Part shown: one piece after another, positions 2,940 through 64,000 of the stretch
Layout of the letters: every line of letters starts with the position of its first letter
Numbering within the stretch: position 1 is the first letter of the stretch
Assembly (NCBI GenBank): GCA_964540205.1
Contig: CAZIMJ010000163.1
Location: 2,847 to 66,846 of the forward strand
Length of the DNA: 64,000 nucleotides
Reading direction: 5' to 3'
Source: an uncultured Eubacteriales bacterium
Lineage (GTDB): Bacteria; Acidobacteriota; Aminicenantia; Aminicenantales; Aminicenantaceae
Made by a program: the position numbers and the translations under genes
The notes under the pieces: generated by a model
What the model saw: the letters and a program-made list of their open reading frames with translations, nothing else
What the model was told of the DNA's origin: nothing
The model's database searches: none

Positions 2940-2955
2940 TGGTTTTATTTCACTT

Positions 2956-23436: not shown

Positions 23437-26061
23437 TCATTCATACCGCAGCACATTGATGGGATTGGTAGATGCAACTTTTACCGTCTGTGAAGCGACT
23501 GTTCCCAGAGCCACTACGGCCGCCGCTCCTGTAGCGGCAATGAAAATCCAGGGAGACAGCGGTGCTTTATAGGCGAAATTCTGGAGCCACGTACTCATAG
23601 CAAAATAGGCGATCGGCCAGGCGAAAATACTGGAAATCAGCACCCACTTCGCAAACTCCTTGGAGAGGAGTACAAATATACGTGTACCCGATGCACCAAG
23701 CACTTTCCGGATCCCGATCTCTTTGGTTCGTTGCTCCGCTGTAAACGCAGACAAACCGAAAAGCCCTAAGCAGGCGATAGCCACAGCCAGCAAGCTGAAA
23801 ACATTAAACATGCTCCCTAGCCGGTACTCGGACTGGTATGCGCTGTCGAAGATATCGTCAAAGAAGCTGTAATCAATGGGATAATTCGGAGAGAATTTTC
23901 CCCATGTTTCTTTTAAGAAACCAAGAGTTCCAGGGATATTCCCTCCACGGATCTTGACAGACAAGTAATAAATATATCTCTGGTCCTTTCGATAGTAGAG
24001 ACACATGGGATCAATACCCCGATGGAGGGAGTGAAAATTAAAATTCTTCACAACACCCACAATCTGGCCCACATCACCCCACCAGATCTCAAAATCCCGT
24101 CCAACAGGCTGTTCCCATCCTAACGCGTTAACCAGGGATTCATTGAAGAGAAAGGAACTTTGGGCATCCGAGGGAAAATCTTTAGAAAAATTCCTCCCGT
24201 TCATAGTATCGATCCCATAGACATCCAAAAAATCCTCATCCACATAGCTCACATAAACATCAAAATAATCGAAATCCTCTGGAATACCCGGCCACTTCGG
24301 ACCCATCTGACTCTGTATATTGTTGGGAAGTGCATCCGTTGCGGTAGCTGCGATCACATTTGGATTGGCTTTTAATTCAGATTTGAAGGGATCAAGACTC
24401 TTTTTTATATCCGGGTCATGGAGCCTGATGACGACAATCTGGTCTTTCTCGTAGCCCACATCCTTGTTCTTGATAAAATCGAGCTGAAGCCGGACGACTA
24501 CAGCACCCACAATAAGCCCCACAGAAACTACAAATTGAAACACAACGAGGGCATTCCTCAGGCGCCTGCCCCCACGGCCGATTAGGATCTCCTTTTTTAA
24601 AACAAACGCCGGCCGGAAAGATGAGATCAAAAGGGCGGGATAGCTTCCGGCCAAGAAATTTATAAATCCCACAGCGATCAGCAGTCCAAAAAAAAGTGCA
24701 GGATTATTCAGCGAGGAAAAGCTCAAGTCTCGCTCTACAAAAGTGCTGAATGCGGGCAGCAAAATTTGAACAAGAACAAGGGCTAGAATCAACGCCAGAA
24801 TCAAAAAAATGAAGGATTCACCATAAAACTGCTTCACCAGATGATGGCGCAGAGCCCCCACCACTTTTCGGATCGCCACTTCTTTTCCGCGTTGGGTTGA
24901 GCAGGCCGTTGCCAGGTTCATGTAATTGATGCAGGCGATGATCAAAATGAGGAAAGCGATCGTAGAGAAAAGATAGATGTTCTTGATATTGTTGTTGGGT
25001 GCGAATTCCCCATCCAGGTCCGAATGGAGATGGATCGTAGTCATCGCCTGGAGGGATGGGCGACAGTAGCGCCGGCCGCCTGGCCATAGATCAGATTCGG
25101 CATACTTCCGATAGAGGCCTGGGATCTTCTGCTCCACAGCATGAGGGTCAGCGCCCTCATTTAATTGAACATATGAAACCGTCGCATGATTCTGCCATTT
25201 GGTTAAATCAAGTTCGGTGATTAACGCATAGGTTTGAAACGGGATGATGAGGTCCATGACAAAATGGGAATTCTGTGGCATGTTTTGGAGGATTCCAGTG
25301 ACCTTGAGATCGTAGGAATTCTCATAACGGATGACCTTACCCATGGGATTTTCCCGGCCAAAAATATGCGTGGCCATCTTTTGAGAGAGTACGATCGAGT
25401 AGGGATCCTTCAAAGCAGCATGGGACTGGCCTCTTTTCAGAGGAAGTGAAAACATCCGAAAGACCTGAGGCTCTGCAAAAATCACCTCGTTTTCTAAATA
25501 ATTCTGGTTGTCATAGTTTAAAAGAACATTTCTGTTGCGTGCAAACCGTGTGGCGAACTCCACTTCTGGAAATTCTTCCACCATTGTGGGGCCGAGCGGA
25601 GCCACTGTTCGTGTCATTGCCGTTTTCCCACCGTGAGTGTGCCTGGCAGGGAGTTCACTGGCCACGCGGTAGATACGGTGAGCATTTTCATGGTATTGAT
25701 CATAGCTCAGCTCAAACTGGACATAGATCATGATCAGAATGAAAAATGTCAGACCAATGGCAAGTCCGGCCACGTTGATGATGGTGAAGCTTTTTTGCCT
25801 TTTCATATGCCTTAAGGCTGTGATCAAATAATGCCTCGACATAATTGTGCCCCACTTTAACAGAAATTTGAGATAGGTGGGAATAGTTTTTAAGACCTGG
25901 ATTCGATACCAGCGTCTGGCTTTTGAAGATCCTCTCTCCTCCTCTATTTGATTAAACTCCTCCTCCAGATCACCAGCCCAAACAAACTCCTCATCATAGC
26001 GTCTCATGACCGAAAAGAGCCATCGGGCGAACCGGGGATGCTTTGCTTGCCCGGATTTCAT
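23437..26061 (-). CDS. FtsX/MacB-like ABC-transporter permease, paralog 2, with N-terminal cytoplasmic extension
   Basis: 874 aa with dual FtsX domains, ending …NPINVLRYE. Overlaps the upstream PadR gene by 4 nt (ATGA). Confidence 0.75.
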   Translation of the reverse strand: MKSGQAKHPRFARWLFSVMRRYDEEFVWAGDLEEEFNQIEEERGSSKARRWYRIQVLKTIPTYLKFLLKWGTIMSRHYLITALRHMKRQKSFTIINVAGLAIGLTFFILIMIYVQFELSYDQYHENAHRIYRVASELPARHTHGGKTAMTRTVAPLGPTMVEEFPEVEFATRFARNRNVLLNYDNQNYLENEVIFAEPQVFRMFSLPLKRGQSHAALKDPYSIVLSQKMATHIFGRENPMGKVIRYENSYDLKVTGILQNMPQNSHFVMDLIIPFQTYALITELDLTKWQNHATVSYVQLNEGADPHAVEQKIPGLYRKYAESDLWPGGRRYCRPSLQAMTTIHLHSDLDGEFAPNNNIKNIYLFSTIAFLILIIACINYMNLATACSTQRGKEVAIRKVVGALRHHLVKQFYGESFIFLILALILALVLVQILLPAFSTFVERDLSFSSLNNPALFFGLLIAVGFINFLAGSYPALLISSFRPAFVLKKEILIGRGGRRLRNALVVFQFVVSVGLIVGAVVVRLQLDFIKNKDVGYEKDQIVVIRLHDPDIKKSLDPFKSELKANPNVIAATATDALPNNIQSQMGPKWPGIPEDFDYFDVYVSYVDEDFLDVYGIDTMNGRNFSKDFPSDAQSSFLFNESLVNALGWEQPVGRDFEIWWGDVGQIVGVVKNFNFHSLHRGIDPMCLYYRKDQRYIYYLSVKIRGGNIPGTLGFLKETWGKFSPNYPIDYSFFDDIFDSAYQSEYRLGSMFNVFSLLAVAIACLGLFGLSAFTAEQRTKEIGIRKVLGASGTRIFVLLSKEFAKWVLISSIFAWPIAYFAMSTWLQNFAYKAPLSPWIFIAATGAAAVVALGTVASQTVKVASTNPINVLRYE

Positions 26062-26393
26062 GATAACTCGACCTTGCCTGCAGCAAGTTCAGGGATACCA
26101 TCCCAGATTTTTTTGTGAAGTTCCCGAGCGTGATGGAGGGCCTTAAGTCCCCTCGACGTCAGTGTGTAATAGATCTTACCTCGTCCCCCTCTTTGGGGAG
26201 TCGGTTTCCCATGCCTCTTCCGGACATAACCCTTACGGAGAAGTTGATCGAGTGTGTTGTAGAGTGTGCCATAGATAATATCTTTTTTTGTGATTTCTGA
26301 GACCGTTCGCCGGATGGAGACGCCGTAAGCTTCCTCCTTGAGCCGGAAGATGGTCGTCAAGATAATTTCCTCTAATACTGTGATCTCTTTCAT
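26058..26393 (-). CDS. PadR-family transcriptional regulator
   Basis: 111 aa. Winged-helix segment YGTLYNTLDQLLRKGYV. Translationally coupled to the permease. Confidence 0.8.
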   Translation of the reverse strand: MKEITVLEEIILTTIFRLKEEAYGVSIRRTVSEITKKDIIYGTLYNTLDQLLRKGYVRKRHGKPTPQRGGRGKIYYTLTSRGLKALHHARELHKKIWDGIPELAAGKVELS

Positions 26394-26404
26394 GGGAAGG
26401 GCTC

Positions 26405-26460
26405 CTGTTTCATTTTTCCGTAAAGGCCGTACATATATTTATACGTAATTTACGAAAAAA
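26405..26460. promoter_or_regulatory. Cluster of CGTAA/TTACG half-sites (candidate PadR operator) in the padR / CHAT divergent region
   Basis: Four matching segments in about 50 nt, including the inverted repeat cgtaa-t-ttacg (26433-26444): ccgtaaagg, ccgtaca, acgtaatttacg, gttacgg. Confidence 0.35.
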
Positions 26461-26755
26461 AAGTTACGGTTCTTCTCATCTTTTTCAATGTTTCAATAAT
26501 CGGAAAGGAAGAGTGTTTCCTTTGGTGGCATCCATATTATTTGAAATGTTAGAATTTTACTGTTGAAAAAATCGAGCAAGTTTTATATTTTTAAAGTAGA
26601 TTAATTAGAGGGGCCCAGCGATCACAAATAAAAATATCATTCGTAGCGGTATTTTCATCTCTTTAATCTGTCTTTTTATTCTCCATTCATCCCCACAAGA
26701 AATTCAAAAATCGGAATCCATAAAACAACTCCATCAAAAGTACTATCATATCAAG

Positions 26756-29700
26756 ATGCTGGAAGCGAACAAAAAAATCGATGATGCCTTGAACGAGCAC
26801 AAATATTTTATCAAAAAGCATCCAGATTTTTACGAAATATACCGATCATTTACAGGTATTTGCAAAGATACTCAGAAACTTGATGAAGCCATATTCTATT
26901 TCAAAGAACTACTCGCTGACGAACCAAATCAACCCGTATATTTTTATGGTTTAGGTCTCTGCTACAAAGCCCAAGAAGAATACGATAAGGCTTCCGAATA
27001 CTTCAAGAGCGCCATCGAACAAGGGGGCTCTTTCATACGTCTTTATTACGACTTGCTTGTTATGGCAAATTCGGAAAAAGAAAGCCTCTCCCTCATCGAT
27101 TATTTTGAAAAAAGATCAAAACTGTTTCCGGATAATTCTTTACTCTTTTACGGAATGGGTGCTCTATATGAATTCAAACTCAGGGATTTAACACGCGCTC
27201 ATGAATGTTACATAAGAGGCTTAGAGGTCGCAAAATCAACCCTGAACAAGCTTGAAGAGGGGCAGCATCTCAACACGATCGGCAATTATTACTGGAGTCG
27301 AGGCAATCTTCGTAAGGCTCAAAACTACTATTTGGAGGCTGCCTCAGTCATTCAAAACAAGGGAAACAAAGTAGATTTGGCAAAATATCTCTATAATTCA
27401 GGACTGATACACTGCTGGCAGGGCAATGCAATTAAAGGAAGAGAATTTTACAAAAAGGCATTGGAGGCAGACAGAGAAGTCGGAAACAAAATTCACGAAG
27501 CCAAGATCCTTAGGAGTATCGGCTACACTTATTTCCAGACAAGTCAATATTCTCTCGCCCTGGATTATTACAAACAGGCCCTAAATCTTGCGCGTGAAGT
27601 CGCAGATAAATCCGGAGAAACTCGTTATTTGCTGGATATCGGAGAAGCACACTGGGTGCAAGGCGAGTATTCTGAGGCCATTCAGCACTATGAAAACTCT
27701 CTGCACCATTCTCAAGAATCAGGTGACAAGAATACAGAAAACACAGCTTCCAACCTATTAGGCAATGCCTTTTGGAAAATCGGGGAATACTCAAAGGCAC
27801 TTCATTTCTATATACAATCGCTGATGATATGCAGAGAGATAGGTAATAAGTTGGGAGAAGCCACAGCCCTCAACAATAGCGCCATAATATACGACAAAAC
27901 AGATAATCTCTCCAAAGCCCTCGAATATTACGATGCAGCCCTTAGGATTTTCGAGGAAGCTGGCGCAAAATCCTCCCAGGGGATGTGTTTGAACAATATT
28001 GCCAGTATTCATTACAGACAACAGAACTACTCTTTTTCTCTGGAATGTTATTTACAAGCAATGAAGATCGCACAAGAAACGGGGAATAAAAGGTCTGAGG
28101 CTAATCGGCTTAAGAATATCGCTAATGTCTACAGCAAGATAAATAATTTCTCAGAGGCGGAAAAATACTATTCTGTGTCGCTCCAGGAAGCTAGAGCCAT
28201 CGAGGTCAAGGAGCTTGAAGCCAAAATATACATGGACATGGGGTATTCTCATATCGACGCTAACGACAATGTGAGAAGCATCAACTCTTTCACAAAAGCT
28301 CTCACCATCGCCCGAGAATTGGGATTGCCAGAAACAACCTGGCTATCTCATTCAGGTCTTGGAACTGCTTATGAAAAACAAGAGAGGCCAGCCGATGCAA
28401 TCTATCACTATAAAAAAGCCATAGCCGTTATCGAAGATGTACGTTCGCAACTCGAACTTGAAGAGCACAAATCAGGATTTCTTAGAAGTAAAGTTAAGGT
28501 TTATGAATCTCTTATCAACACATTGTTTATACAGAGTCAAAAACATCTTAATAAAGGGTTTGGAAAAGAAGCATTTCGCTATGCGGAAAAGGCAAAAGCT
28601 CGAGTTTTCTTAGACAGTCTGCAAACATCAAAAGTCAATCTTAGGAAAAGTTTAACTCCTAATTTAAGAGATGAAGAGTTTAAGTTATCGAGAAATATTT
28701 CAATAATCCAGACAGAATTGGTGAAGCCCGGTCTTACTCGAACACAAAGAGAAGAGCTTTTTAGAAATCTAGAAAGAGCGGAGGAAGACTATGCGAATTT
28801 TATCCAAACACTGAGGATGGAAAATCCCGAATACGTCCTCTTGGTCTATCCCAAACCCAACACACTCGAAGAAATTCAAAGCTCATTACCAGATAACGAG
28901 ACTGCCATTATCGAATATTTTCTCGGTCAGGATCATTCTTTTGTGTTTTATATAGACCAGAAAAAATTCTCTATGTTTAGATTGGTTCAAAGCAGCGATC
29001 TGCAAGCGAGAGTGAGTGATTATATCCAACTTATATCGATAAGAGACGAAAACGGAAAATTTAGGGCATTTGCGGCCGGAAAAAAATTGTTCCAAGATTT
29101 AATAGGACCCTTTGAGGCCAATCTGAAGGGAATTAAAAAACTGATCATTATTCCTGATGGCAATTTGAATTATTTACCATACGAAGCGATCATATTCTCC
29201 AGCTCTCGAAACCAGGATCAATTCTTCATTGAATCCTTTCAGATCTCATACGCTCCATCTGCCTCTTCATGGATGATGCTGTGTCAGAGGAAAAGGGCAG
29301 AGACAGCTGTCAAAGATTTCTTGGCATTTGCAGATCCTGTGTTTTTCTTCAGTACATCATCTGAGAAACAAGCCGATGCGGATAATATCTTAAGAGAGTT
29401 TTACCTTGAACAGGGATTTGACTTTTCTCCTCTTCTCTTCAGTGGAAAGGAGGTCAAACAAGTCTCAAAATATTTTAAGAAAAGATCGAGGGATATCTAC
29501 ACCAAAAGGAAGGCCAAAGAGGAAACGCTGAAGAACCTTCCATTAGAGAGCTATAAGATCATACACTTTGCCACGCATGGGTTCATCGACGAGAAGGTCC
29601 CTCACCGATCTGCATTAATTTTGACTTTAGACGAAGACCCTGCAGAAGATGGTTTTTTCCAGGCCAGAGAGGTCTTCAACCAACGCATAAATTCCAAGCT

Positions 29701-30034
29701 CGTTGTCCTCTCTGCCTGTCAAACGGGAAAAGGAAAGCTGGAAAAAGGAGAGGGAGTCATAGGGCTTTACCGGTCATTCCTTTTTGCTGGTACGCAGGCT
29801 GTACTCATGAGCTTATGGAGTATCAATGATAAGGCGACGGCAGAGTTTATGAAATATTTTTATGAAAATTTGGTACAAGGTTGTAGCAAAGTAGAAGCAT
29901 TACAAAAAGCAAAAATCAGAATGATCGCATCTGAATACAGCCATCCCTTTTATTGGGCAGCGTTTGTTTTGAACGGTGAGGGTCAATCTTCAATTGAAAT
30001 TGAGAAGCCCTCCTTTTGGGAGAGGATATTCTAG
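26756..30034 (+). CDS. TPR-repeat / CHAT-domain (caspase-like HC-dyad protease) protein
   Basis: 1092 aa. The N-terminal ~560 aa hold TPR repeats. The C-terminal CHAT domain carries the catalytic His (IIHFATHGFIDEK) and Cys (VVLSACQTGKG). Confidence 0.8.
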   Translation: MLEANKKIDDALNEHKYFIKKHPDFYEIYRSFTGICKDTQKLDEAIFYFKELLADEPNQPVYFYGLGLCYKAQEEYDKASEYFKSAIEQGGSFIRLYYDLLVMANSEKESLSLIDYFEKRSKLFPDNSLLFYGMGALYEFKLRDLTRAHECYIRGLEVAKSTLNKLEEGQHLNTIGNYYWSRGNLRKAQNYYLEAASVIQNKGNKVDLAKYLYNSGLIHCWQGNAIKGREFYKKALEADREVGNKIHEAKILRSIGYTYFQTSQYSLALDYYKQALNLAREVADKSGETRYLLDIGEAHWVQGEYSEAIQHYENSLHHSQESGDKNTENTASNLLGNAFWKIGEYSKALHFYIQSLMICREIGNKLGEATALNNSAIIYDKTDNLSKALEYYDAALRIFEEAGAKSSQGMCLNNIASIHYRQQNYSFSLECYLQAMKIAQETGNKRSEANRLKNIANVYSKINNFSEAEKYYSVSLQEARAIEVKELEAKIYMDMGYSHIDANDNVRSINSFTKALTIARELGLPETTWLSHSGLGTAYEKQERPADAIYHYKKAIAVIEDVRSQLELEEHKSGFLRSKVKVYESLINTLFIQSQKHLNKGFGKEAFRYAEKAKARVFLDSLQTSKVNLRKSLTPNLRDEEFKLSRNISIIQTELVKPGLTRTQREELFRNLERAEEDYANFIQTLRMENPEYVLLVYPKPNTLEEIQSSLPDNETAIIEYFLGQDHSFVFYIDQKKFSMFRLVQSSDLQARVSDYIQLISIRDENGKFRAFAAGKKLFQDLIGPFEANLKGIKKLIIIPDGNLNYLPYEAIIFSSSRNQDQFFIESFQISYAPSASSWMMLCQRKRAETAVKDFLAFADPVFFFSTSSEKQADADNILREFYLEQGFDFSPLLFSGKEVKQVSKYFKKRSRDIYTKRKAKEETLKNLPLESYKIIHFATHGFIDEKVPHRSALILTLDEDPAEDGFFQAREVFNQRINSKLVVLSACQTGKGKLEKGEGVIGLYRSFLFAGTQAVLMSLWSINDKATAEFMKYFYENLVQGCSKVEALQKAKIRMIASEYSHPFYWAAFVLNGEGQSSIEIEKPSFWERIF

Positions 30035-30043
30035 GAGGGAGTA

Positions 30044-30826
30044 TCAATCGTTCTTTATTTCAAACTCCTGTAAGTTTGACTCTCTGGTAATCCCATCACT
30101 CGAAAAAACAATAATCTTCCAATAGCAGACCTTCATATTTTTTATTGACTCATACTGTGCTGGGAGCAGTTTTAGGGATGTTTTTTGTGTTTTTTCAGAC
30201 ATCCAAACTTCTATCAGCTCTTCATCCAGGAGTTTGACTTGGTATCCTGCAGCTCCCGGAACAGGATCCCACTCAAAAAATCGTGGAATCTCTGCCAGAT
30301 CGCCCTTGGGATTTGTCAATTGAATAATATCGTTTTGTTTCCCTCTCACAGTATCTTCCATTCCAATAGGAGGAGTCTTCGACAAAAAGAAAACGACAAC
30401 GACAATAATCATCAAACCTGCAAGTGCGGTCGCGTATTTGAATGCAGTCTTCTGCCAAAACAAAAAAAGCGATCTTGGCTTGAAGGCAGTTCCCATATCG
30501 CTGAGTTTTGGCCTTTCCATCTCTTTGATTTTGAACTTCGCAATTTCCTTTAGTTCCTTAGTCTCTTTCTCGGATAAGGATATTCCCTCTAATCCAACAG
30601 CTATTTTTTTGCCTTCACTGAATACCTGACGGACGATCGCAAATTTCTTGCTGCATATCGGACATTCCGAGATGTGGTCCACTATTCTGTATTTTTCACT
30701 CTCACTCAGAGTTGGTGAGAATGATTGTATTATTTTATCATCATCAGGGCATTCCTGATCTGCACTCCGCTTATGATCCACAGAAGATTGATAGAGTTTC
30801 TTTAAATCCTGATTTTCCACCTTCAT
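30044..30826 (-). CDS. Anti-sigma factor (zf-HC2 N-terminal domain, single TM, periplasmic C-terminal domain)
   Basis: CPDDDKI…HISECPICSKKF zinc-finger pattern. TM segment LAGLMIIVVVVFFL. Directly downstream of the ECF sigma gene. Confidence 0.55.
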   Translation of the reverse strand: MKVENQDLKKLYQSSVDHKRSADQECPDDDKIIQSFSPTLSESEKYRIVDHISECPICSKKFAIVRQVFSEGKKIAVGLEGISLSEKETKELKEIAKFKIKEMERPKLSDMGTAFKPRSLFLFWQKTAFKYATALAGLMIIVVVVFFLSKTPPIGMEDTVRGKQNDIIQLTNPKGDLAEIPRFFEWDPVPGAAGYQVKLLDEELIEVWMSEKTQKTSLKLLPAQYESIKNMKVCYWKIIVFSSDGITRESNLQEFEIKND

Positions 30827-30873
30827 CTCTCTTCTCCTCTTTTTCTCATCATGAACGTATGGACATCATGATT

Positions 30874-31437
30874 TCAGGATGACTCCTTATTGTAAATTCC
30901 CTTTTCAAACAGTCCCTGTCTTAAATCAGCAAGCCCACGAGAGAGTAAATTTCTGGTTTTCCCGTCACTCCAATTAAAAAATTCTGATATCTCATTCAGA
31001 TCCATCCCTATAAGGTAGAGTTTGAGAACCTGCCGGCGAGATTCAATCAACGTGTCGACTGCCTTTCTGATGAGTTCTATCAACTCTTTCTTTTCATACT
31101 GCCTATCCGGATTATGCATTAGTACCTGAGGGATGTCTTCGATTGAGACAGTGCTTTCCCTTTGTAGCAACAGTTGTTTCTTCTGTAAAAATATTTTTTT
31201 CATAACTCTACAGGTCGTCGTGTATGTCACCTTCCATATATAAGAGCCGAAATTATGGATTTCCTTCTCACTTTTAAGGATTTCCCTCCAGATTTTTATT
31301 TTGACTTCCTGTTCGATATCGTCCATATCGGATAGATCTATCTGGGGAGAAGTTTTACGAATCGCAGACCGTATGAGCTGTGAGAAATGCTCGATAGTGA
31401 TTTCAATTTCTGAAATTTTTTCTGCCGACTTTGCCAT
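30874..31437 (-). CDS. ECF-subfamily RNA polymerase sigma-70 factor
   Basis: 187 aa with sigma-70 region 2 and region 4 similarity. Followed by the anti-sigma gene. Confidence 0.7.
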   Translation of the reverse strand: MAKSAEKISEIEITIEHFSQLIRSAIRKTSPQIDLSDMDDIEQEVKIKIWREILKSEKEIHNFGSYIWKVTYTTTCRVMKKIFLQKKQLLLQRESTVSIEDIPQVLMHNPDRQYEKKELIELIRKAVDTLIESRRQVLKLYLIGMDLNEISEFFNWSDGKTRNLLSRGLADLRQGLFEKGIYNKESS

Positions 31438-31449
31438 TGCGACACGTTT

Positions 31450-31465
31450 TACTGATTATAATCAG
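31450..31465. promoter_or_regulatory. Perfect 16-bp palindrome actgattataatcagt containing a TATAAT box, 13 nt upstream of the sigma-factor start
   Basis: Self-complementary. Candidate -10 element and/or operator in the divergent control region. Confidence 0.35.
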
Positions 31466-31517
31466 TTTTTCGCGCTCAGGCAAAAAAAAATACTAGAAAT
31501 TTTCTTTTTGAGTGAGA

Positions 31518-31545
31518 GGAATTCGGGTCTTAATGGCTCTTCTAA
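31518..31545 (+). promoter_or_regulatory. Candidate ECF (sigmaE-like) promoter: GGAAT -N18- TCTAA
   Basis: ggaattcgggtcttaatggctcttctaa lies about 20 nt upstream of SD aaggagg and the ATG at 31565. Spacing matches the GGAACTT-N16-TCTAA class. Confidence 0.4.
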
Positions 31546-31564
31546 ATGATAAGGAGGTGTATAC

Positions 31565-32053
31565 ATGAAAGCTTTAAATCCACATTATGGAAAAAACATG
31601 TTGTTTAGGTCAGTTTGTGCATTATCATTGAGTTTTATTCTGATTGCTGTATTTGTCTCCGGGAATGTCTATGCACAAGGTGATCCTGAGCCTGAAGAGA
31701 GCATAGTACAGGCAGCGAAAAGTGCCCTTGGGAAAATGGGAATATCTCTAGGAAATAACCTTGGCAAAGTCCGTAATGAGGCATCCACATGGGTATTCAG
31801 TGCCAAGATCGGGGATACGGCAAAAGCATTAAACTTAGGAGTGGGGCTCGCAGAACCACGTCCAACTCCTGTCAAATCAGGAACTGAGATTTTTCTGACT
31901 GTTGGCCCAAAGGGGAAGGTGACTTTTTATATCGATTCTCAGAATAAGATGAGAAACAACAGAAACAGCAGCACATCCGTTTCGATCAACAAAGATGTTA
32001 TTCTAAATGACATCGTCATCCAATCCGCGTCTTTCCCGGCAGTTGAAAGGTAA
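31565..32053 (+). CDS. Hypothetical secreted protein (signal peptide)
   Basis: 162 aa with strong RBS. Signal peptide …LIAVFVSGNVYAQG. First gene of a four-gene same-strand cluster. Confidence 0.4.
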   Translation: MKALNPHYGKNMLFRSVCALSLSFILIAVFVSGNVYAQGDPEPEESIVQAAKSALGKMGISLGNNLGKVRNEASTWVFSAKIGDTAKALNLGVGLAEPRPTPVKSGTEIFLTVGPKGKVTFYIDSQNKMRNNRNSSTSVSINKDVILNDIVIQSASFPAVER

Positions 32054-32149
32054 GTCAGTCTCGATATCATCGATATTGAGGGGTTGAGTATTTTTTATCT
32101 GGATATATGAGTTTTAGCCTGGTTTTATGAGATCTATAGGAGGTGAACA

Positions 32150-32665
32150 ATGAGAAAAATCCTATCTTTTTTAGTCATTCTGTTTTTGGTTGCGGGAATA
32201 TCCTCTCTGGCAGCAACAAAAACTCTGACCGTGAGACAGGCAGAAGCCTCGATGGGTTCCGGCATCCTATTGTTTAAAATCGAGGAACTTAAGGATTGTG
32301 TTATGGAATGCAGAGATGATTTGTCCAAGCTTACAGAAAAGGGATGCAAATGCTCCACAGAAATCCAGATCATAGATGGGTCATCCAACCGTGTTGTGGC
32401 TGATTTGGGAAAAATTAATGACATTGCCTCACCCTCTCAAATCAGTTGGATTCACAAGAAAGTCAGTGGAAATTCATTATTAGTCAAAATTAACGACGCC
32501 GGTTTTTTATCGGTCGCTCAGAAAAATTTTGAAGAGAATCGGTTTGGAGCCAAAATCTCTGGGAACTATTCGGTCAAATTGATACTTGGAGGAGTTGATG
32601 GGGAATGTGATGATGCAATTGTGATATCCCCGGAGGTGAAAGTTGAATTCCAAGTTTCTAAGTAA
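32150..32665 (+). CDS. Hypothetical secreted protein (signal peptide)
   Basis: 171 aa with RBS aggagg. Signal peptide …VAGISSLAATKT. Confidence 0.4.
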   Translation: MRKILSFLVILFLVAGISSLAATKTLTVRQAEASMGSGILLFKIEELKDCVMECRDDLSKLTEKGCKCSTEIQIIDGSSNRVVADLGKINDIASPSQISWIHKKVSGNSLLVKINDAGFLSVAQKNFEENRFGAKISGNYSVKLILGGVDGECDDAIVISPEVKVEFQVSK

Positions 32666-32714
32666 GAAAGATGAATATGTTGAGATAAAGAATAAGATTC
32701 CAACGGAGGTCAAA

Positions 32715-33266
32715 ATGAAAGAGAAAATAAAAATTCAGCCAATAATTGCTTACATGATAGCCCTCATGTTGATTGGCGGTGGTTTTTTTCTGTGTTGCCA
32801 AACGGAAGGCGAGGAGGGGAATAATCATCAGGTTACAGGGACATTCACTGTGGATGGGAAGGCCATCCCTCTCAAGTATGTTTACACCTGGCACGACTCA
32901 AGCTTTTCAGATGACACACAGAAAGATCTGATGTTCCTTTTTAGCGACAAGCCAGTTCCCGAAGATGCGGACATCCCCTTTGATCTGGGGGATTTAGGGA
33001 GGAAGGGAAAAATTCATGCCATCGAGGTGAGGTATTCCAAAAGTGAGCAGAGCATTGTGGGTGGAGCTATTCACCATGAAGCTTTTGGTAACATGATGAT
33101 GGCTTTCGGGGGGCAGTACCTCATCGTTTGCGAATTTTCAATATTGAATGAGCAATCAGCTGAAGGAAAGATTCACACAAACAAGCTTCAGGAGAGCTTC
33201 GACGACCATACATGGGAAGTCGAGGCAGAATTTAAAACGATTCTAAAAAAGGAGAAAAATCAATGA
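32715..33266 (+). CDS. Hypothetical membrane-anchored/lipoprotein
   Basis: RBS ggagg followed by ATG at 32715 (MKEKIKIQPIIAYMIALMLIGGGFFLCC). 3' end overlaps the next gene by 4 nt. Confidence 0.4.
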   Translation: MKEKIKIQPIIAYMIALMLIGGGFFLCCQTEGEEGNNHQVTGTFTVDGKAIPLKYVYTWHDSSFSDDTQKDLMFLFSDKPVPEDADIPFDLGDLGRKGKIHAIEVRYSKSEQSIVGGAIHHEAFGNMMMAFGGQYLIVCEFSILNEQSAEGKIHTNKLQESFDDHTWEVEAEFKTILKKEKNQ

Positions 33267-34030
33267 AGAAGGTAATCTGTGTTTTGTTCGGTTTTTTTAT
33301 GGTCATGGCAGTCTCTAACATTGCCGTCGCAGGCCAAAAGCCCCCGAAGCTTGAGTGCAGGAAAATGGCACTTCAAATGGCTAAAGCCTTTGACAAACGA
33401 GACATCAGTATTCTTCAAGAGCTAAGCGGCCAAGAGGCATCCGATGAGGAGGCTGAGCAGTTTAAACAAGAAATGGATGCGATGGACGAACAAGGTGTTC
33501 TTGCACCGATGATCGAAAGGATGCGCAACTTTCCGGAAATTGGCGAAATCCCGGATTGGGTTACGCATGTAACAATTGAATACAGGTATGTAGACGGAGA
33601 GCGGCAGATTGAATTCGAATCGGAATTTATATTTAAAGATGGCGCCTGGAAAGTTGATCTATTTTCTCCGAACGAAAGTGGAGATTTTGAAAGCGAGAAG
33701 GATTGGATATTGAAGAACTCTATCCCTGCCCCACCCGAAGGCCAGAAGACAATTGACGCCGGATTCAATGAGGTCATAAACAGGGTTGTTTCGGCAATCA
33801 AAGAGGAAGACGATGAGACGCTCTCTGAACTTACACCATTACGCATTCATGAAATCCAGGGAGAAAAAGAAAAGTATATTCAACTGCTGTCCCAATTCCC
33901 GACAGTTGGACCCATACCGGCACCACTCCTAGAATTTGAAATAACATTAGAGGGCGAGGATGCAGAAATCACGGTCGATTTTGAATGCCCGGAGAACAAA
34001 CTCAAAATCGTGAAGCTCGCGGTTTTTTAA
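33263..34030 (+). CDS. Hypothetical secreted protein (signal peptide), acidic
   Basis: 255 aa. Signal peptide …AVSNIAVAGQ. Translationally coupled to the upstream gene. Confidence 0.4.
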   Translation: MKKVICVLFGFFMVMAVSNIAVAGQKPPKLECRKMALQMAKAFDKRDISILQELSGQEASDEEAEQFKQEMDAMDEQGVLAPMIERMRNFPEIGEIPDWVTHVTIEYRYVDGERQIEFESEFIFKDGAWKVDLFSPNESGDFESEKDWILKNSIPAPPEGQKTIDAGFNEVINRVVSAIKEEDDETLSELTPLRIHEIQGEKEKYIQLLSQFPTVGPIPAPLLEFEITLEGEDAEITVDFECPENKLKIVKLAVF

Positions 34031-47572: not shown

Positions 47573-47971
47573 CTAAGGTTTCGGCATGAGGATGGCGCCG
47601 CCTGGGTACATTTCCACTGCGCGGAATCCCATCCTTTCCAGTTCTCCACAGAGTTCGATGCCGCGCACCGTGAGCCCTCTCATCGGACCCAGTGTTATCG
47701 GGAAAAAAGGGATCTTTCTTCTCCGCAATTCCAGGTCACAGACCCGATAATGTTCGCCGTTTCTATCTTCAATGGACTTTCTGCCGGGAGGGAGGTTTAA
47801 TGGTGCATCGATAGTAATGAGGTCTGGTTTTTCCTTCTCGGCGCACTCCAAAATATCAGCATCGGAATACGCTAGAAAAGTCTTTACCCTCAAGCCTCGA
47901 AGTACGCACATCCCCGTGGGACGATGCGGCACTCCCGCCAAATCAACGCCGAGAACACAGAATTCATTCAT
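47573..47971 (-). CDS. Hypothetical protein, RNase-H-like/DUF429-like N-terminal region (possibly truncated)
   Basis: 132 aa (VLGVDLAG…ITIDAPL). Resembles only the N-terminal half of the family. Confidence 0.3.
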   Translation of the reverse strand: MNEFCVLGVDLAGVPHRPTGMCVLRGLRVKTFLAYSDADILECAEKEKPDLITIDAPLNLPPGRKSIEDRNGEHYRVCDLELRRRKIPFFPITLGPMRGLTVRGIELCGELERMGFRAVEMYPGGAILMPKP

Positions 47972-57763: not shown

Positions 57764-58378
57764 AACCGATTTAGAGTTCGTTCCCTAATCGAACCATTTA
57801 TGAAACGGCCCCGACACCTCTGATTTTCGGATTACGCATGTATCGATAAGGCCCTAGTACCACTAATATTTTTGGCGGATTATATGGTGCTCGAGTCCCC
57901 TTTTTGTTCAGCTGATGGTCTCAGAAGGAGCCTTGGAAAGTTATTCTCGACAAGCACGTCTAATAGTATATAGAATTCGGTTTAGTGGCTTGTTTAATAT
58001 TGTGTCGTGGTAGTGGATGTGTTATATTCGATGGTTAAATTGCCTGAATTATTCATAAAAAATGTCGATACTTATTACAACTAAACCAATTTCAACAATT
58101 TACTGTGTTCATTCATCCTACCCATCTGATAATTCCTTCTTCAATGTCCCTTCCATTTATAATCGACATTTTTTACTCTTCGGGCGAGCTGATCTCACTA
58201 CAAAGCCTTCGTTGTAGCCCGGGTAGGTTGGGTCGGCTCGCAGTAGTTCACTACAGCTTCGTGGGCCACTTCCTTGACTTTGCGACCTTAATGTTAGGGT
58301 GGGGCGGGTCGGATCGTGCATAATCCAGGATAATTGCAAATAATATGAATAAAATTTATCACAATTAGGAGGTTGTGG

Positions 58379-60172
58379 ATGAAAAAATCAATGATTTTGA
58401 TCGCAGCTTTATGTTTTTTAGTCTTTTCGACTGTGATCGGACAACAAGCGAAAGAAGAAGAGAAACCTGATCCAATGGCCAATTTTTCCCTGGTTGATGA
58501 GATCGAACCCGTACCTGAAGACGTGAAAGTGGGATTTGAATCCATCACGGGAAAAGATGCCGTCACGTATCTTAAATTTATCTCCGATGATCTCCTCGAG
58601 GGAAGAGACACCGGGAGTGATGGATATGATATTGCCGCCCTTTATGGGGCGACCATGTTCGAGCTCTGGGGCCTCAAGCCTGCAGGAGATAAAATCAAAC
58701 CCCGGATGGATATGCGCCAAATGATGATGGGCGGACAAATGGCGCAAAGCTCTAAAAGAAGCTATTTTCAGAATATTGCTATGCGGGAAACATTAGAAAC
58801 GGACGGAATGGCCATTGCCGCGTGGCAGAAAGGCCAGCAGAAAAAGACCCGGGCTTTCTCTCCGAATATCGATTATAACTATTTTGCCTCTGGATCACAA
58901 TCTCTGACGGCTCCCGTGGTCTTCGTGGGATATGGCATCCAAGAAGACTCCCTGAAATTCGACGAGTACAAGAACCTGGACGTTAAGGGTAAGTTCGTCA
59001 TGATGATTTCTGAAGCACCCGGAAAAGGCGATCCCGATTCTCCATTCAACAAGGGCGAGTTGAAAGCGAAATACTACCCTCAGCGCCGCCGCATGAGGCG
59101 GATGACAGATCCAAAAACCAACCTGGCTACCGATTTGGGGGCATTGGGTGTCCTGTTGGTTGAAAACTCACCCCAAGACAATCCAGATGCAGCACGCCAA
59201 GCTCTTGACAGACAAAAAATTTATGATGATCAACCCATAATCCCCGGTGAACGCCGAAGAATCGCGCTCATGGAGAGCAGAGGACCTCGCATGCCCTGGG
59301 ATTCAGTTGCAACAATCCGGGTCTCCAGAGAGATGGCAAACCAGATCCTGGATTATGTTGATCAGGATGTGGATACTCTCAAAGGGAAGATCGAAAAAAC
59401 ACTCCAGCCCCAATCTATGCCACTTCAGGGAGTGACATTCACCGTTAAGAGCACAGCTAAAACCAAACTCATCAACAGCATGAATGTTCTAGGATACATC
59501 GAAGGCTCTGATCCGGAACTGAAAAAGGAAGCGATCGTGATCGGCGGCCATTTGGACCACCTGGGAATGCGGGGTGATTATATTTACAACGGCGCTGACG
59601 ATGACGGCTCCGGTTCTGTCGGTGTTTTGGAGATCGCAGAAGCCTTTGCCAAAAATCCTGTTAAGCCCAAAAGGTCGATCGTGTTCGCTCTCTGGACGGG
59701 TGAAGAAAAAGGACTCCTCGGCTCAAGGTATTATGTGGCCCATCCCTTCATCGAAAAAACCTATTGTAACCTGAACCTCGATATGATCAGCCGAGAGTAC
59801 GAAAAGAGCCGGCTAGCAATGATGGCCCGGATGTTCGGGGAAAACGTTCCCAAGGAGGCATTGGAAAAAATCGATGTAAAGAAATTTGTCAGTCTCTCCT
59901 ACGACGCCGACACACCCGAGTTAGGAACAATCATAAGGGAAAATAACAACTATGTCGGCCTTCATTTAAGCATGCGTGCATCCAGTGAAGGCATGGGTGG
60001 AAGCGACCACGCACCCTTTGCCATGAACAACATCCCTTGGGCATTTTTCAATGCAGCTATGACTGAAGACTATCACCAGCCCACAGATTCGGTGGAAAAA
60101 GTGAGCCCCAAATTGATGGAAAAGATTATTCGCATCACTTATCTCACAGCACATTCATTAGCGAATAATTGA
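58379..60172 (+). CDS. M28-family aminopeptidase with PA domain, secreted
   Basis: RBS aggagg followed by ATG at 58379. Metal-ligand motifs GGHLDHLG, YNGADDDGSG and WTGEEKGLLGS. Confidence 0.75.
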   Translation: MKKSMILIAALCFLVFSTVIGQQAKEEEKPDPMANFSLVDEIEPVPEDVKVGFESITGKDAVTYLKFISDDLLEGRDTGSDGYDIAALYGATMFELWGLKPAGDKIKPRMDMRQMMMGGQMAQSSKRSYFQNIAMRETLETDGMAIAAWQKGQQKKTRAFSPNIDYNYFASGSQSLTAPVVFVGYGIQEDSLKFDEYKNLDVKGKFVMMISEAPGKGDPDSPFNKGELKAKYYPQRRRMRRMTDPKTNLATDLGALGVLLVENSPQDNPDAARQALDRQKIYDDQPIIPGERRRIALMESRGPRMPWDSVATIRVSREMANQILDYVDQDVDTLKGKIEKTLQPQSMPLQGVTFTVKSTAKTKLINSMNVLGYIEGSDPELKKEAIVIGGHLDHLGMRGDYIYNGADDDGSGSVGVLEIAEAFAKNPVKPKRSIVFALWTGEEKGLLGSRYYVAHPFIEKTYCNLNLDMISREYEKSRLAMMARMFGENVPKEALEKIDVKKFVSLSYDADTPELGTIIRENNNYVGLHLSMRASSEGMGGSDHAPFAMNNIPWAFFNAAMTEDYHQPTDSVEKVSPKLMEKIIRITYLTAHSLANN

Positions 60173-60247
60173 TCCTTGTAACGGCAACTGAACAATCTAT
60201 CAACGAAGTTTTCAGCTCCCATCACAGGCTTTGACCGCCTCAAGGAT

Positions 60248-60784
60248 GTGGGGCCCGGGGAACTTCTTCTGGATATCGGCTCCGGCTCTGGCAGAGCCCT
60301 CGATTATTTAGAGAAAAAAGGATTTACGCACGTCTTCGGGCTGGAAAACAATTTTCGGTTTCTTGAAAAAAGTCACTTCTCTGTAGTCTGTGGAAAGGGG
60401 GAACAAGCGCCCTTCAAAGATGAAAGTTTTGGCGCGGTTTTATCTATCGGGGTACTCTCTTACATTCTTGAAGACTCAAAAAGAACGCAGCTTTTAAACG
60501 AGATCCACAGGATCTTAAAGCCGTGTGGATTTTTCTTCCTGTCCTGTTTTCTGATCAGCAGCGATGAATACCATCAGAAAAAATACCGGGAAAGTCAAAT
60601 AGAATCTGTAACATACGGAATATTCGAATCAGATTCAGGGGGAATCTTTCGCCACTCTAGAGAGGACAAATTAAGAGAGCTTCTCGGCAATTTCAACATC
60701 GTCAGTTGGAGCGTTCGCCCATTCACCACCATGAACAAACGAGAGGCTTTGGGTGTTATTATCCAAGCTCAGAAGCAAAAATGA
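60248..60784 (+). CDS. Class I SAM-dependent methyltransferase (short; motif I at the extreme N-terminus, possibly 5'-truncated)
   Basis: GTG start immediately before LLDIGSGSGRAL. No in-frame ATG upstream before a stop. Confidence 0.5.
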   Translation: MGPGELLLDIGSGSGRALDYLEKKGFTHVFGLENNFRFLEKSHFSVVCGKGEQAPFKDESFGAVLSIGVLSYILEDSKRTQLLNEIHRILKPCGFFFLSCFLISSDEYHQKKYRESQIESVTYGIFESDSGGIFRHSREDKLRELLGNFNIVSWSVRPFTTMNKREALGVIIQAQKQK

Positions 60785-60811
60785 GCATTTGAGGTTATCA
60801 ATTGCTTTATA

Positions 60812-61093
60812 TAGAATCAGAAGAGATGGATTGAGCGACATAAGGGAAGATTTAGCCTTCACGAATCACCGCCGAGGGAATCCGCCGAAGGCGGGCGTCG
60901 AGGACTATATGAGCATGAGAGAAATATACATGTGTGGCACTCCTAAGTCGAAGCCTCAGACGCAAAATAAAGATAAAAAAGCGCAGATCCGCAGACGCAT
61001 AAGAACAAGAGGGGCCATCCATTTGAATATATAAATGGGTGGGAGGGCGGCGTTAAAAATGTGACGAGAGCGAAAACAGCTTCTCTGATTCTA
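60812..61093. repeat. Long-hairpin element copy B, interrupted by a ~230-bp insertion
   Basis: The 5' arm is tagaatcagaagagatgga and the 3' arm is gagcgaaaacagcttctctgattcta. Both match the intact hairpin at 63296..63338. The insert is flanked by the direct repeat gagcga. Confidence 0.55.
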
Positions 61094-61107
61094 TCCTGTT
61101 GAGTGAA

Positions 61108-62058
61108 TTAGTAATTCTTTTTCAGGTCCATGCCTGAATAGAGTCGACCGACCTCATCAGCGTAACCATTGAACATCAAAGTCGTGCGCTTGCCTTCTTC
61201 TCCGATCCGTCTCTCTCTCGCCTGGCTCCAGCGAGGATGTTTTACATCGGGATTAACATTTGCATAGAATCCATATTCTCTTGAGTTTACCTTCCGCCAG
61301 CTTGTCTTTGGCATCTTTTCAACAAAGCGGATCTTTGCGATGGACTTTGCACTCTTGAATCCATACTTCCATGGGACGACGATCCGGATGGGCGCTCCGT
61401 TCTGATTCGGGAGACACTCTCCATACAGGCCTACAGCCATTAGGGCGAGTGGATGTAAAGCCTCGTCCAGCTGCAAAGCTTCAGTGTAAGGCCAATCGAG
61501 AACACGTGTGCGCTGGCCAGGCATTTGTTCAGGCGCATAAACAGTCTCGAACTCAACGAACTGTGCCTTTGATGTTGGCCGACACTTCTTTACGAAATCG
61601 GCAAGGGGAAATCCTATCCATGGGATGACCATGGACCATGCCTCCACACAACGCCATCGCTAAATGCGTTCTTCAAGAGGGAACATGCTTGTGAGCTCAT
61701 CGATATCGAATGTAATTTTATCCTCGACCAATCCTTCCACAGAAAGAGACCAAGGCCGCGTGCGGAAATCGCGACTGAGCTCTTTGACAGACCTTTTTCC
61801 GGTGGAGAATTCATAGAAATTTGTATACGTCGTTGCTCCCTCATAGGGAGTCAATCTGTCCTGGACAACATATTCTCCTCTTTTCTCCACTGTGAGTTTT
61901 TGCCCTTGTCGAGAATCTTTCTGGAAATAAGAGCGTGGGAGGAACAATCCGCTGGCTGCCAAAGAGGCTGAACCGGCAAGGAATTGGCGGCGATTCATAT
62001 AAAGCTTTTTATCGGTGATCTCCGAATACTTGATCGATTGCGCCTTTTTGATCAGCAT
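61108..62058 (-). pseudogene. msrP: msrP (YedY-like periplasmic protein-methionine-sulfoxide reductase Mo-subunit) interrupted by one in-frame TAG
   Basis: The N-terminal ORF (Tat signal NRRQFLAGSASLAASG, …PLEERI*) and the C-terminal ORF ([18 protein letters not shown]…) are in the same frame. They are separated only by TAG at 61660-61662, at the position of a conserved Tyr. Confidence 0.7.
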
Positions 62059-62239
62059 GGATACCCTCCGGTCAAACTCAATGCTCTATCTTGAGAACTT
62101 TATACCACAGTCATTGAGTGCAGTCAAAACAGACTGTTTGTAGAGACCTTAAGCAGAGAAATTCAATAGCCACACATTGACTCATAGCCCAGTATGTTCT
62201 ATACTATATATATAGATTTTATGTAATCCAGGAGGTGTC

Positions 62240-63280
62240 ATGAGTCAAAAAATCGGCGGAATAATCGTGATCCTGATCCTGTTTATAGGATGGAACATCG
62301 TGACATCAAATGCCAGGGATAATGTTCCTTCGGAACTAATTCTGGATGGAGAGACAAAAATGGTCAAAAAAATCATAAGATCCGAGGAAGAGTGGAAAAA
62401 GAGATTGACACCCGAGCAGTACCGCGTTCTGAGAAAAAGCGGTACAGAGCGGGCTTTCACCGGGAAATACAACGATTTTTATGAGGAGGGAATCTACACA
62501 TGTGCCGCTTGTGGCACTCCCCTTTTTTGTTCCGATACAAAATACGACCATGGGACAGGATGGCCGAGCTTTACTGCGACTTTCGAAGAAAACAATGTCG
62601 AATACAGAGCTGACTATTCTCTTTTGATGAAGAGGACCGAAGTGAGATGCAGCGTTTGCGGTTCGCATCTTGGCCATGTGTTTGATGATGGACCATCCCC
62701 CACTCATAAACACTTCTGCATCAATTCTGTGGCACTGGATTTCACATCGAAAGACACTGTATCTACATCAACGGTCTCATCCATAGGTCAAGAGTATGTT
62801 CAGGAGAAAAAAACTGTGTCAGAGCCTGCCACCTTTGCCGCGGGATGTTTCTGGAGTGTTGAGTATAAGTTCGGCCAGTTGAAGGGTGTTCTCTCCACAG
62901 CGGCCGGTTATTCAGGAGGAGAAGTCAAAAATCCCACTTACAAACAAGTTTGTTCAGACGAAACAGGGCACGCAGAAGCGGTGCACATCACCTATGATCC
63001 CGCAGAAATCACCTTTGAAGAGCTCTTGGCCTTTTTCTTCAAAATCCACGACCCTACACAGCTCAACAGGCAGGGACTTGATGTAGGTTCTCAATACAGG
63101 TCAGCCATCTTCTATCACGATGAGACACAGAAGAAGGCCGCTCTAAAGGTCATCGAAGATCTGAATACATCCGGACGTTATAAAAAGCCCATAACGACTC
63201 AAGTCGTCCCCTATTCTGAATTCTACAAGGCCGAGGAATGCCACCAGAAATACCACGAAAAACTGAGAAAAAAGTACTGA
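62240..63280 (+). CDS. msrAB: Bifunctional peptide-methionine sulfoxide reductase MsrB-MsrA with N-terminal membrane anchor
   Basis: MsrB zinc/catalytic motifs CAACGTPLF…RCSVCGSHLGHVFDDG. MsrA active site GCFWSVE. RBS aggagg. Confidence 0.85.
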   Translation: MSQKIGGIIVILILFIGWNIVTSNARDNVPSELILDGETKMVKKIIRSEEEWKKRLTPEQYRVLRKSGTERAFTGKYNDFYEEGIYTCAACGTPLFCSDTKYDHGTGWPSFTATFEENNVEYRADYSLLMKRTEVRCSVCGSHLGHVFDDGPSPTHKHFCINSVALDFTSKDTVSTSTVSSIGQEYVQEKKTVSEPATFAAGCFWSVEYKFGQLKGVLSTAAGYSGGEVKNPTYKQVCSDETGHAEAVHITYDPAEITFEELLAFFFKIHDPTQLNRQGLDVGSQYRSAIFYHDETQKKAALKVIEDLNTSGRYKKPITTQVVPYSEFYKAEECHQKYHEKLRKKY

Positions 63281-63295
63281 AACCTTGTCAGAATA

Positions 63296-63338
63296 TAGAA
63301 TCAGAGAAGATGGAGCGAAAACATCTCCTCTGATTCTA
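63296..63338 (+). terminator. Long hairpin (11-bp stem tagaatcagag/ctctgattcta) downstream of msrAB; intact copy A of the hairpin family
   Basis: tagaatcagagaagatggagcgaaaacatctcctctgattcta. Confidence 0.55.
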
Positions 63339-63383
63339 GCCCTGAAGATATTACTAATTGTGACAAATCCTGGTGGGACAGTG

Positions 63384-64000
63384 TCAGTGAATGTTCAGTT
63401 TCACGAATTTTGATTCCCATGGTTTTATGTGGATCGATTCCCCAGGCTCTCCGATAATCTCCTCAATAACATTAACTTCGGTCAGGGCCTGTCTCCGGGA
63501 ATCTACGAATGGTAGGACGACGCTCAGTTCCGCGGATATTCCGTCTGTTTCCCGGAAATGCAGGATGATGCCCTCTCCATCCTGGGAGGGTTTTGCACTC
63601 ACGAGAAGGATGTTATCTTGATTTGTTTTTAGTAGCGACTTTGTAAAGGGGGCTTTTGAAGATTTCCCCCGTGGAAAAACTCTCGAGAGAAGTGGGACTC
63701 GCGAATTCCAGCTGAATCGGGTTGCATAAAAGTTGGACCTGTTTTTGGTGGACGTCAAAAAGTATTTCCACTTGAACTTACCTTCCTGGCTGGCACGGAA
63801 ATTCGTAACCCAATAGTTATTCATCACCCAGGAATACACATGAGGGACTAAGATCTGGGCTATATACTGGAACTTACCAAGGTTGATATCCCCGAAATGC
63901 ACAAGAGGGATCTCATCGCTGCCTAGGATATATTGACTATCAGATCCACGGACAGCCACAAAATTTTGAACTGCATGCCAATCTGCAGAAGTCCCTTCCA
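63384..64000 (-). CDS. Hypothetical protein, partial (reading frame stays open upstream to the window edge)
   Basis: ORF runs off the 3' end of the window. No confident domain assignment. Confidence 0.3.
   Translation of the reverse strand, partial: EGTSADWHAVQNFVAVRGSDSQYILGSDEIPLVHFGDINLGKFQYIAQILVPHVYSWVMNNYWVTNFRASQEGKFKWKYFLTSTKNRSNFYATRFSWNSRVPLLSRVFPRGKSSKAPFTKSLLKTNQDNILLVSAKPSQDGEGIILHFRETDGISAELSVVLPFVDSRRQALTEVNVIEEIIGEPGESIHIKPWESKFVKLNIH

Follow-up and report, generated by a model that had tools for sequence, protein, structure and literature searches.

Whether a single in-frame TAG in a gene for methionine-sulfoxide repair marks a dead gene, a recoded or leaky one, or a faulty sequence is the question raised by one locus in a 64,000-nucleotide stretch of DNA (hereafter the window) from an uncultured sediment bacterium of the Aminicenantaceae (assembly GCA_964540205.1, contig CAZIMJ010000163.1, positions 2,847 to 66,846). 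The gene concerned, msrP, encodes the molybdenum (Mo)-dependent reductase MsrP and lies next to, and divergent from, a gene for an MsrB-MsrA fusion (msrBA). A first-pass annotation made from the letters alone had described two msrP open reading frames (ORFs) that share a frame and are contiguous save for one TAG, and had offered three explanations, namely, a very recent nonsense mutation, a sequencing or assembly error, and read-through or recoding. The analysis described below favors the first of these: with a probability of roughly 0.75, msrP is a young, population-wide pseudogene that arose by a genuine nonsense mutation changing Tyr133 to amber.

Read on the minus strand, positions 62058 to 61108 form a frame of 316 codons interrupted by one internal stop, a TAG at 61662 to 61660 (CTA on the plus strand), and the gene ends in a TAA at 61110 to 61108. 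With the internal stop masked as X, the product matched the MsrP equivalog profile NF003767 of NCBIfam with 454 bits (curated cut-off, 207 bits), residues 3 to 316 being aligned with profile positions 5 to 320 of 320. Because this match runs from end to end with the X at the stop, the two in-frame halves are one gene rather than a chance arrangement, and the description of two contiguous ORFs in one frame was confirmed. The product also matches the Pfam family Oxidored_molyb (PF00174) with 110 bits, and its alignment with Escherichia coli YedY (PDB 1xdq) covers residues 55 to 316 (E = 8e-93); sequence identity to this solved structure settles the predicted fold as that of MsrP. The 5′ part (codons 1 to 132; 61663 to 62058, minus strand) starts with an ATG at 62058 (codon 21 is a second possible ATG start) and encodes a twin-arginine translocation (Tat) signal, MNRRQFLAGSASLAASG; the twin-arginine motif NRRQFLAGSASLAASG (RRQFL, of the Tat-type RRxFL pattern) was read by eye from the translation. 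The 3′ part (codons 134 to 316 plus the TAA; 61108 to 61659, minus strand) has an open frame and keeps the conserved residues. What msrP lacks is an uninterrupted frame for a single polypeptide, as codon 133 is TAG in all four assemblies that were compared (see below). By its sequence, the locus is best described as msrP by descent and, under standard decoding, as a predicted nonfunctional member of the family.

The TAG (61660 to 61662, minus strand; context ATT TAG CGA) stands in place of an invariant residue. It aligns with Tyr98 of E. coli YedY, four residues ahead of Cys102, and all 122 aligned homologues from the protein search have Tyr in this column. The first-pass annotation was thus right in placing the stop at a conserved Tyr, whereas the E. 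coli motif that it quoted was wrong in one letter (CVEGW for CVEAW). The motif RWRCVEAW, encoded at 61659 to 61636 and aligned with RMRCVEAW of E. coli, is positioned 3′ of the TAG. Its TGT codon (61648 to 61650, minus strand) corresponds to Cys102, which we take, as established knowledge, to be the Mo ligand of YedY/MsrP, and the numbering agrees with the 1xdq alignment. The first in-frame start after the TAG is a GTG at 61647 to 61645, the Val codon of CVEAW, which directly follows the Cys codon. Standard decoding would therefore yield a Tat-targeted fragment of 132 residues that ends four codons before the Mo-binding Cys, i.e., a presumably exported N-terminal fragment devoid of the catalytic center, and any product restarted downstream would be devoid of both the Cys and the Tat signal. 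Since translation could resume in frame only beyond the Cys codon, a restart cannot rescue the enzyme; judged from the sequence, an active enzyme should be obtainable by read-through only, and otherwise MsrP function would be lost.

The codon from which the TAG arose can be read from the relatives. Species-representative genomes were scanned, 598 relatives were confirmed, and the 80 best of these were retained. The nearest three species representatives are metagenome-assembled genomes (MAGs) of Aminicenantes (L001, L002, and L003; 91%, 90%, and 67% amino acid identity, respectively), each of which encodes an unbroken MsrP of 316 amino acids with TAT, TAT, and TAC, respectively, at the site. 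The lesion thus appears to be a TAT-to-TAG transversion (T to G on the coding strand) specific to the lineage of the window, and the TAY-to-TAG origin proposed earlier is borne out by this comparison with sister genomes.

Could the TAG be an error of sequencing, assembly, or consensus calling in an organism that really has TAT or TAC? The single-base difference from the TAT of the relatives would suit such an error, and consensus errors do happen in MAGs. Exact look-ups with MsrBA and the C-terminal MsrP fragment as queries retrieved public contigs that belong to the population of the window, from JGI 3300031537 (L082/L084, 3463 bp), JGI 3300031652 (L085, 1424 bp), and Logan SRR8556254 (L081 and L086), with 99.86 to 99.96% identity to the window, the range being 99.86 to 99.94% for those that span the TAG; the window's own N-terminal MsrP fragment is on record from a 66,905-bp NCBI contig. 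All three contigs from other assemblies that span the site (L082/L084, L085, and L086) have CTA on the plus strand, i.e., TAG. The same three differ from the window at 61779 (minus strand), a single-nucleotide polymorphism (SNP) in msrP codon 94 where the window has G (Leu) and the three other assemblies have T (Ile), and further SNPs relative to the window occur at 60524 in L084 and at 60974 in L085. The same base is therefore present in the NCBI MAG, in two JGI metagenomes, and in an SRA run assembled independently by Logan, and since these are four distinct consensus sequences that differ at other positions, an error is very unlikely; this alternative of the first-pass annotation can be set aside. 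No intact allele, with Leu94 or Ile94 and with the long or the short start, was found by exact look-up among about 15 billion proteins, the nearest intact proteins being 90 to 91% identical, and when JGI metagenome contigs were scanned with a 47-nt pattern open to any third codon base, only the known contig was returned, with no TAY allele and no additional carrier of TAG. The window's MsrP fragments of 132 and 179 amino acids had no exact match in the gene-position index, and the population was reached via msrBA and the 174-amino-acid fragment. On these sequences, the TAG appears to be common to at least two haplotypes of one population and, judged on consensus sequences, fixed or nearly so.

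A further explanation holds that the organism reads TAG as a sense codon, be it by pyrrolysine insertion, by a dedicated amber suppressor tRNA, or by an altered code. Nothing direct speaks for it; the frame is open and conserved past the TAG. Among the stop codons of the 45 long ORFs in the window, 18 are TAA, 16 are TGA, and 11 are TAG, so that TAG ends 24% of these ORFs and does so at natural C termini. Specifically, 6 of 8 TAG-ending ORFs examined have additional in-frame stops within 45 codons downstream, and genes ended by TAG encode complete C-terminal Pfam domains in the case of a tricorn-like S41 protease, a CHAT-TPR protein, and an S9 peptidase. The window contains no other in-frame TAG, as each of the two candidates, the TAGs at 8012 and 47573, turned out to be a true stop. 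The former, considered as a sense codon between a 622-amino-acid S10 peptidase ORF and a 365-amino-acid ORF, separates two genes, the second of which has its own start and signal peptide; the latter, considered as a premature stop of a DUF429 gene, coincides with the end of homologues of 196 amino acids (...ILMPKP). The 64-kb window holds no tRNA gene, suppressor or other, and none was found in L001 to L003; ARAGORN did not confirm a tRNA-like 3′ end that had been noticed by eye in L001. The literature hits that mention Aminicenantes together with pyrrolysine, judged by title and abstract, concern unrelated topics, and none ties the group to pyrrolysine use. Together with the Tyr found at the site in every aligned homologue, these results render recoding highly improbable. 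Both checks suggested earlier thus point the same way within the window: TAG is an ordinary terminator, and no suppressor tRNA is encoded there.

The pattern of substitutions bears on the age of the lesion. Pairwise ratios of nonsynonymous to synonymous substitution rates (dN/dS, or omega) between the window and L001 were 0.07 for the whole gene and 0.057 for its downstream half, and those between the window and L002 were 0.165 and 0.14, respectively. On the branch leading to the window, 25.5 synonymous and 9.5 nonsynonymous changes were counted over the whole of msrP (omega of about 0.1), and 19.5 and 6.5, respectively, after the TAG, while neutral decay would be expected to give about 3.5 times as many nonsynonymous as synonymous changes. 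At the 116 columns that are at least 95% conserved in the family, R196Q is the sole change private to the window, and one such change is also the median for the family. The loss of purifying selection downstream of the TAG that, along with unanimous reads, had been named as the sign of a true pseudogene is therefore not seen. As a rough estimate from the change counts, neutral evolution would occupy no more than about 15% of the window branch.

Several observations weigh against the reading of msrP as a dead gene. No relaxation of selection is apparent, as the window branch has an omega of about 0.1, also over the 183 codons past the TAG, and neither a second stop nor a frameshift is present in msrP; such an undecayed frame is expected for a very young pseudogene and equally for a gene that works via read-through. 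Because the TAG is common to the Leu94 and Ile94 haplotypes, it would be, on the sequences compared, either older than this polymorphism or recombined across it, and the lesion, though young, is not brand new. The three public samples may share one study or site and are only partially independent of one another; a literature search for the sample identifiers returned no mention. Finally, the base following the TAG (+4) is C, a context reported to be frequent at UAG codons that are read through in Salmonella (PMC9122581). According to an alternative reading, msrP is a leaky "pseudo-pseudogene": a near-cognate tRNA (for Gln, Tyr, or Lys) would read the amber codon at times, a low level of useful MsrP would result, the frame would stay under purifying selection, and the stop would act as a strong down-tuner. 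The low omega, the lack of further lesions, the C at +4, and the presence of the TAG in two haplotypes and in several samples are in keeping with this view, as are two reports on bacterial in-frame stops. In bacteria, it is reportedly common for genes that are otherwise conserved to carry such a stop, often together with low dN/dS (Belinky et al. 2021, PMC7918605), and Salmonella pseudogenes with in-frame stops, mostly UAG and frequently with C at +4, are translated at a low level, the stop usually being read as Gln (Feng et al. 2022, PMC9122581).

On the other side, the low omega reflects mostly the time before the mutation, and the within-population data, consisting of one SNP, have no power. 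The base preceding the TAG (−1) is U, which never occurs at that position in the Salmonella set (PMC9122581), and since UAG is mostly read as Gln there, whereas Tyr is invariant here, the bulk of any read-through product may lack activity. No unusual fold was predicted for the RNA surrounding the TAG (z = −0.79 relative to shuffled sequences), and no Rfam match was found near it; within 60000 to 64000, the search returned just a match to sR43 at 63306 to 63350 that, with 16.3 bits (E = 0.89), falls short of the gathering score of 45. We regard leaky read-through as unlikely, a minor alternative, though it is the main rival of the pseudogene reading. The notion of a functional split gene, in which products of 132 and about 174 to 179 amino acids would assemble into an active enzyme, deserves hardly any credence: gene callers do predict two ORFs, of 132 and 174 amino acids, but neither product holds the Mo-ligand Cys, the C-terminal product has no Tat signal, and none of the listed homologues is split likewise, the other short entries being, where read, one-ended truncations. 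Even taken together, error, recoding, and a split gene account for very little of the probability. The recent nonsense mutation, one of the alternatives named in the first-pass annotation, is consequently the best reading, error being excluded and recoding unsupported.

Under this pseudogene reading, the loss was probably tolerated, in that the adjoining exported MsrBA is intact and periplasmic methionine-sulfoxide repair seems to be only weakly needed in the lineage. An independent lesion of the partner gene was found in a sister species. In one of its three samples (L088, JGI 3300068090, versus L087 and L089), a GGA-to-TGA change at position 7093 converts Gly243 of the conserved MsrA GHAE motif to a stop in msrBA, and msrP is intact. 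A supposed truncation of msrBA in L001 proved to be only a masked run of N. The occurrence of loss-of-function alleles in either periplasmic Msr gene of related populations, of which there are two cases, suggests weak or redundant selection. A bolder proposal, which we consider quite unlikely, combines these strands: the amber codon would serve as a dimmer switch, near-cognate read-through keeping a trickle of MsrP under purifying selection; the independent nonsense alleles of msrP and msrBA would represent recurrent, possibly reversible down-tuning in Aminicenantes of anoxic sediments; and the MsrP clade without adjacent MsrQ would use another electron donor.

A single nonsense mutation in a nonessential stress-repair gene is a common event and carries little weight by itself. 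What the locus offers is a clean natural example for the debate over dead versus leaky genes, in which several assemblies agree on the lesion, the codon that preceded it is known, and no decay is seen in the frame beyond it. In annotation, the locus should appear as a pseudogene or as "msrP, internal stop" rather than as two hypothetical proteins.

The first-pass annotation had further remarked that MsrQ, the partner of MsrP, is absent. A hidden Markov model (HMM) was built from the MsrQ proteins of 74 related loci; in 74 of the 80 related loci fetched, msrQ lies on the msrP strand within the fetched flank. This HMM found no match in the 64-kb window, in L001 to L003, or in L087 to L090, although MsrQ may still be encoded elsewhere in the genome. 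The absence from the window therefore holds, but it has no connection with the lesion: since intact orthologues in the clade are also without msrQ, the missing msrQ is a trait of the clade and not part of the decay of msrP. In the sister species (L087 to L089; MsrP intact, 87% identity), the gene order is GH38-like gene, msrBA (leftward), msrP (rightward), methyltransferase, M28 peptidase, amidohydrolase, PadR, and MacB, as in the window, and the order in L001 is the same as far as its contig reaches. In the close members (the window, L001, and the sister species), msrP is divergently paired with the exported msrBA in place of an adjacent msrQ. That a whole Aminicenantes MsrP clade (the window at 60785 to 62058, L001, L003, L087, and L090) is without adjacent MsrQ prompts one to ask which electron donor serves MsrP in these anaerobes, a point that may outweigh the lesion in interest.

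The msrBA fusion (62240 to 63280, plus strand) encodes an N-terminal hydrophobic segment followed by MsrB and MsrA and is intact in the window population. Pfam places SelR at residues 56 to 169 and PMSR at residues 197 to 346, i.e., in B-A order, and the protein scores 357 bits against NCBIfam NF004042 (cut-off, 330). The CxxC pairs, the catalytic Cys of MsrB (HFCINS), and the GCFWS motif of MsrA are kept. The sole N-terminal hydrophobic stretch, MSQKIGGIIVILILFIGWNIVTSNA, may equally be a cleaved signal peptide, with a possible site at SNA|RD, or an uncleaved anchor; the divergent fusion described in the first-pass annotation is hence corroborated by its SelR, PMSR, and NF004042 matches, whereas the transmembrane anchor attributed to it may just as well be a cleavable signal peptide. 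In the region between the divergent genes (62059 to 62239), a sigma-70-like element, TTGACT-17-TATACT, was noted at 62177 to 62205 (plus strand) as a consensus match only.

The msrP-msrBA pair is flanked on both sides by a hairpin sequence, ATATAGAATCAGAGAAGATGGAGCGAAAACATCTCCTCTGATTCTAGCC. One copy, a 49-nt element with 17-nt arms and a 9-nt loop, lies just 3′ of msrBA at 63293 to 63341 and may act as a bidirectional terminator for msrBA and the convergent GH38-like gene, although no terminator-like site was called there. The second copy, 3′ of msrP at 60809 to 61096, is split into halves (60809 to 60830 and 61068 to 61096) by a 237-bp single-copy insert. The same split element occurs in L001 with a further 2.9 kb inside, which was considered as a group II intron or mobile element, an idea rejected on finding a TPR gene and a hypothetical gene in this stretch; in L002, the corresponding spot spans only about 34 bp. 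The 49-nt element has no match in Rfam. Over 58352 to 64000 of the window, the flanking genes are nearer to L001 (92 to 94% nucleotide identity) than to L002 (87%), and msrP shows the opposite, being nearer to L002 (90.8%) than to L001 (86.9%). This discordance in sequence identity is suggestive of homologous recombination between these lineages at the msr locus.

Elsewhere in the window, the DUF429 gene (RNase-H-fold nuclease; 47573 to 47971, minus strand) encodes 132 amino acids, whereas most of the numerous homologues in Aminicenantes have 196 to 200. In the window, the sequence is ...EMYPGGA|ILMPKP*, and in the homologues it is ...EMYPGGA-QDIW...NFTDGA-ILMPKP. The gene has thus lost 64 codons in frame, between short GA repeats, which is probably a second gene lesion in the same 64 kb and is in line with the pseudogene reading of msrP. 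The segment from 26000 to 34000 has a GC content of 0.40 to 0.43, against about 0.47 elsewhere in the window, and holds a TPR-CHAT protein of 1092 amino acids, a sigma factor of the extracytoplasmic function type, and four consecutive ORFs without Pfam match (31565 to 34030); it may be an acquired island. Secreted or periplasmic peptidases are very abundant in the window (S10, S37, tricorn/S41, S9, C69, S8, and M28), and of its four MacB/FtsX-type permeases, one (23437 to 26061) has a PadR regulator ahead of it. Positions 798 to 3468 encode a molybdopterin-dependent oxidoreductase together with a 2Fe-2S subunit, and the organism therefore does make and use the Mo cofactor.

Compared with known systems, the window msrP resembles that of E. 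coli MsrPQ (PDB 1XDQ/1XDY) in its FPLEERI[Y] motif region with the Mo-ligand Cys, its whole-length equivalog match, and its Tat-type signal, and differs in that the frame is broken at the Tyr98 position and no msrQ is present in 64 kb. With the Salmonella pseudo-pseudogenes and other bacterial in-frame stops, it shares a single nonsense substitution in a conserved gene of low dN/dS and a UAG followed by C, whereas the −1 U, the invariant residue that was hit, and the catalytic Cys just downstream set it apart. Among exported MsrB/MsrA fusions, the PilB-type MsrAB of Neisseria may be compared. The window MsrBA agrees with NF004042-type fusions in having both domains in B-A order, a score over the cut-off, and an N-terminal segment for export or anchoring; the differences are that a thioredoxin domain is absent and that the divergent partner of the gene is an msrP devoid of msrQ, a pairing that is kept in its close Aminicenantes relatives.

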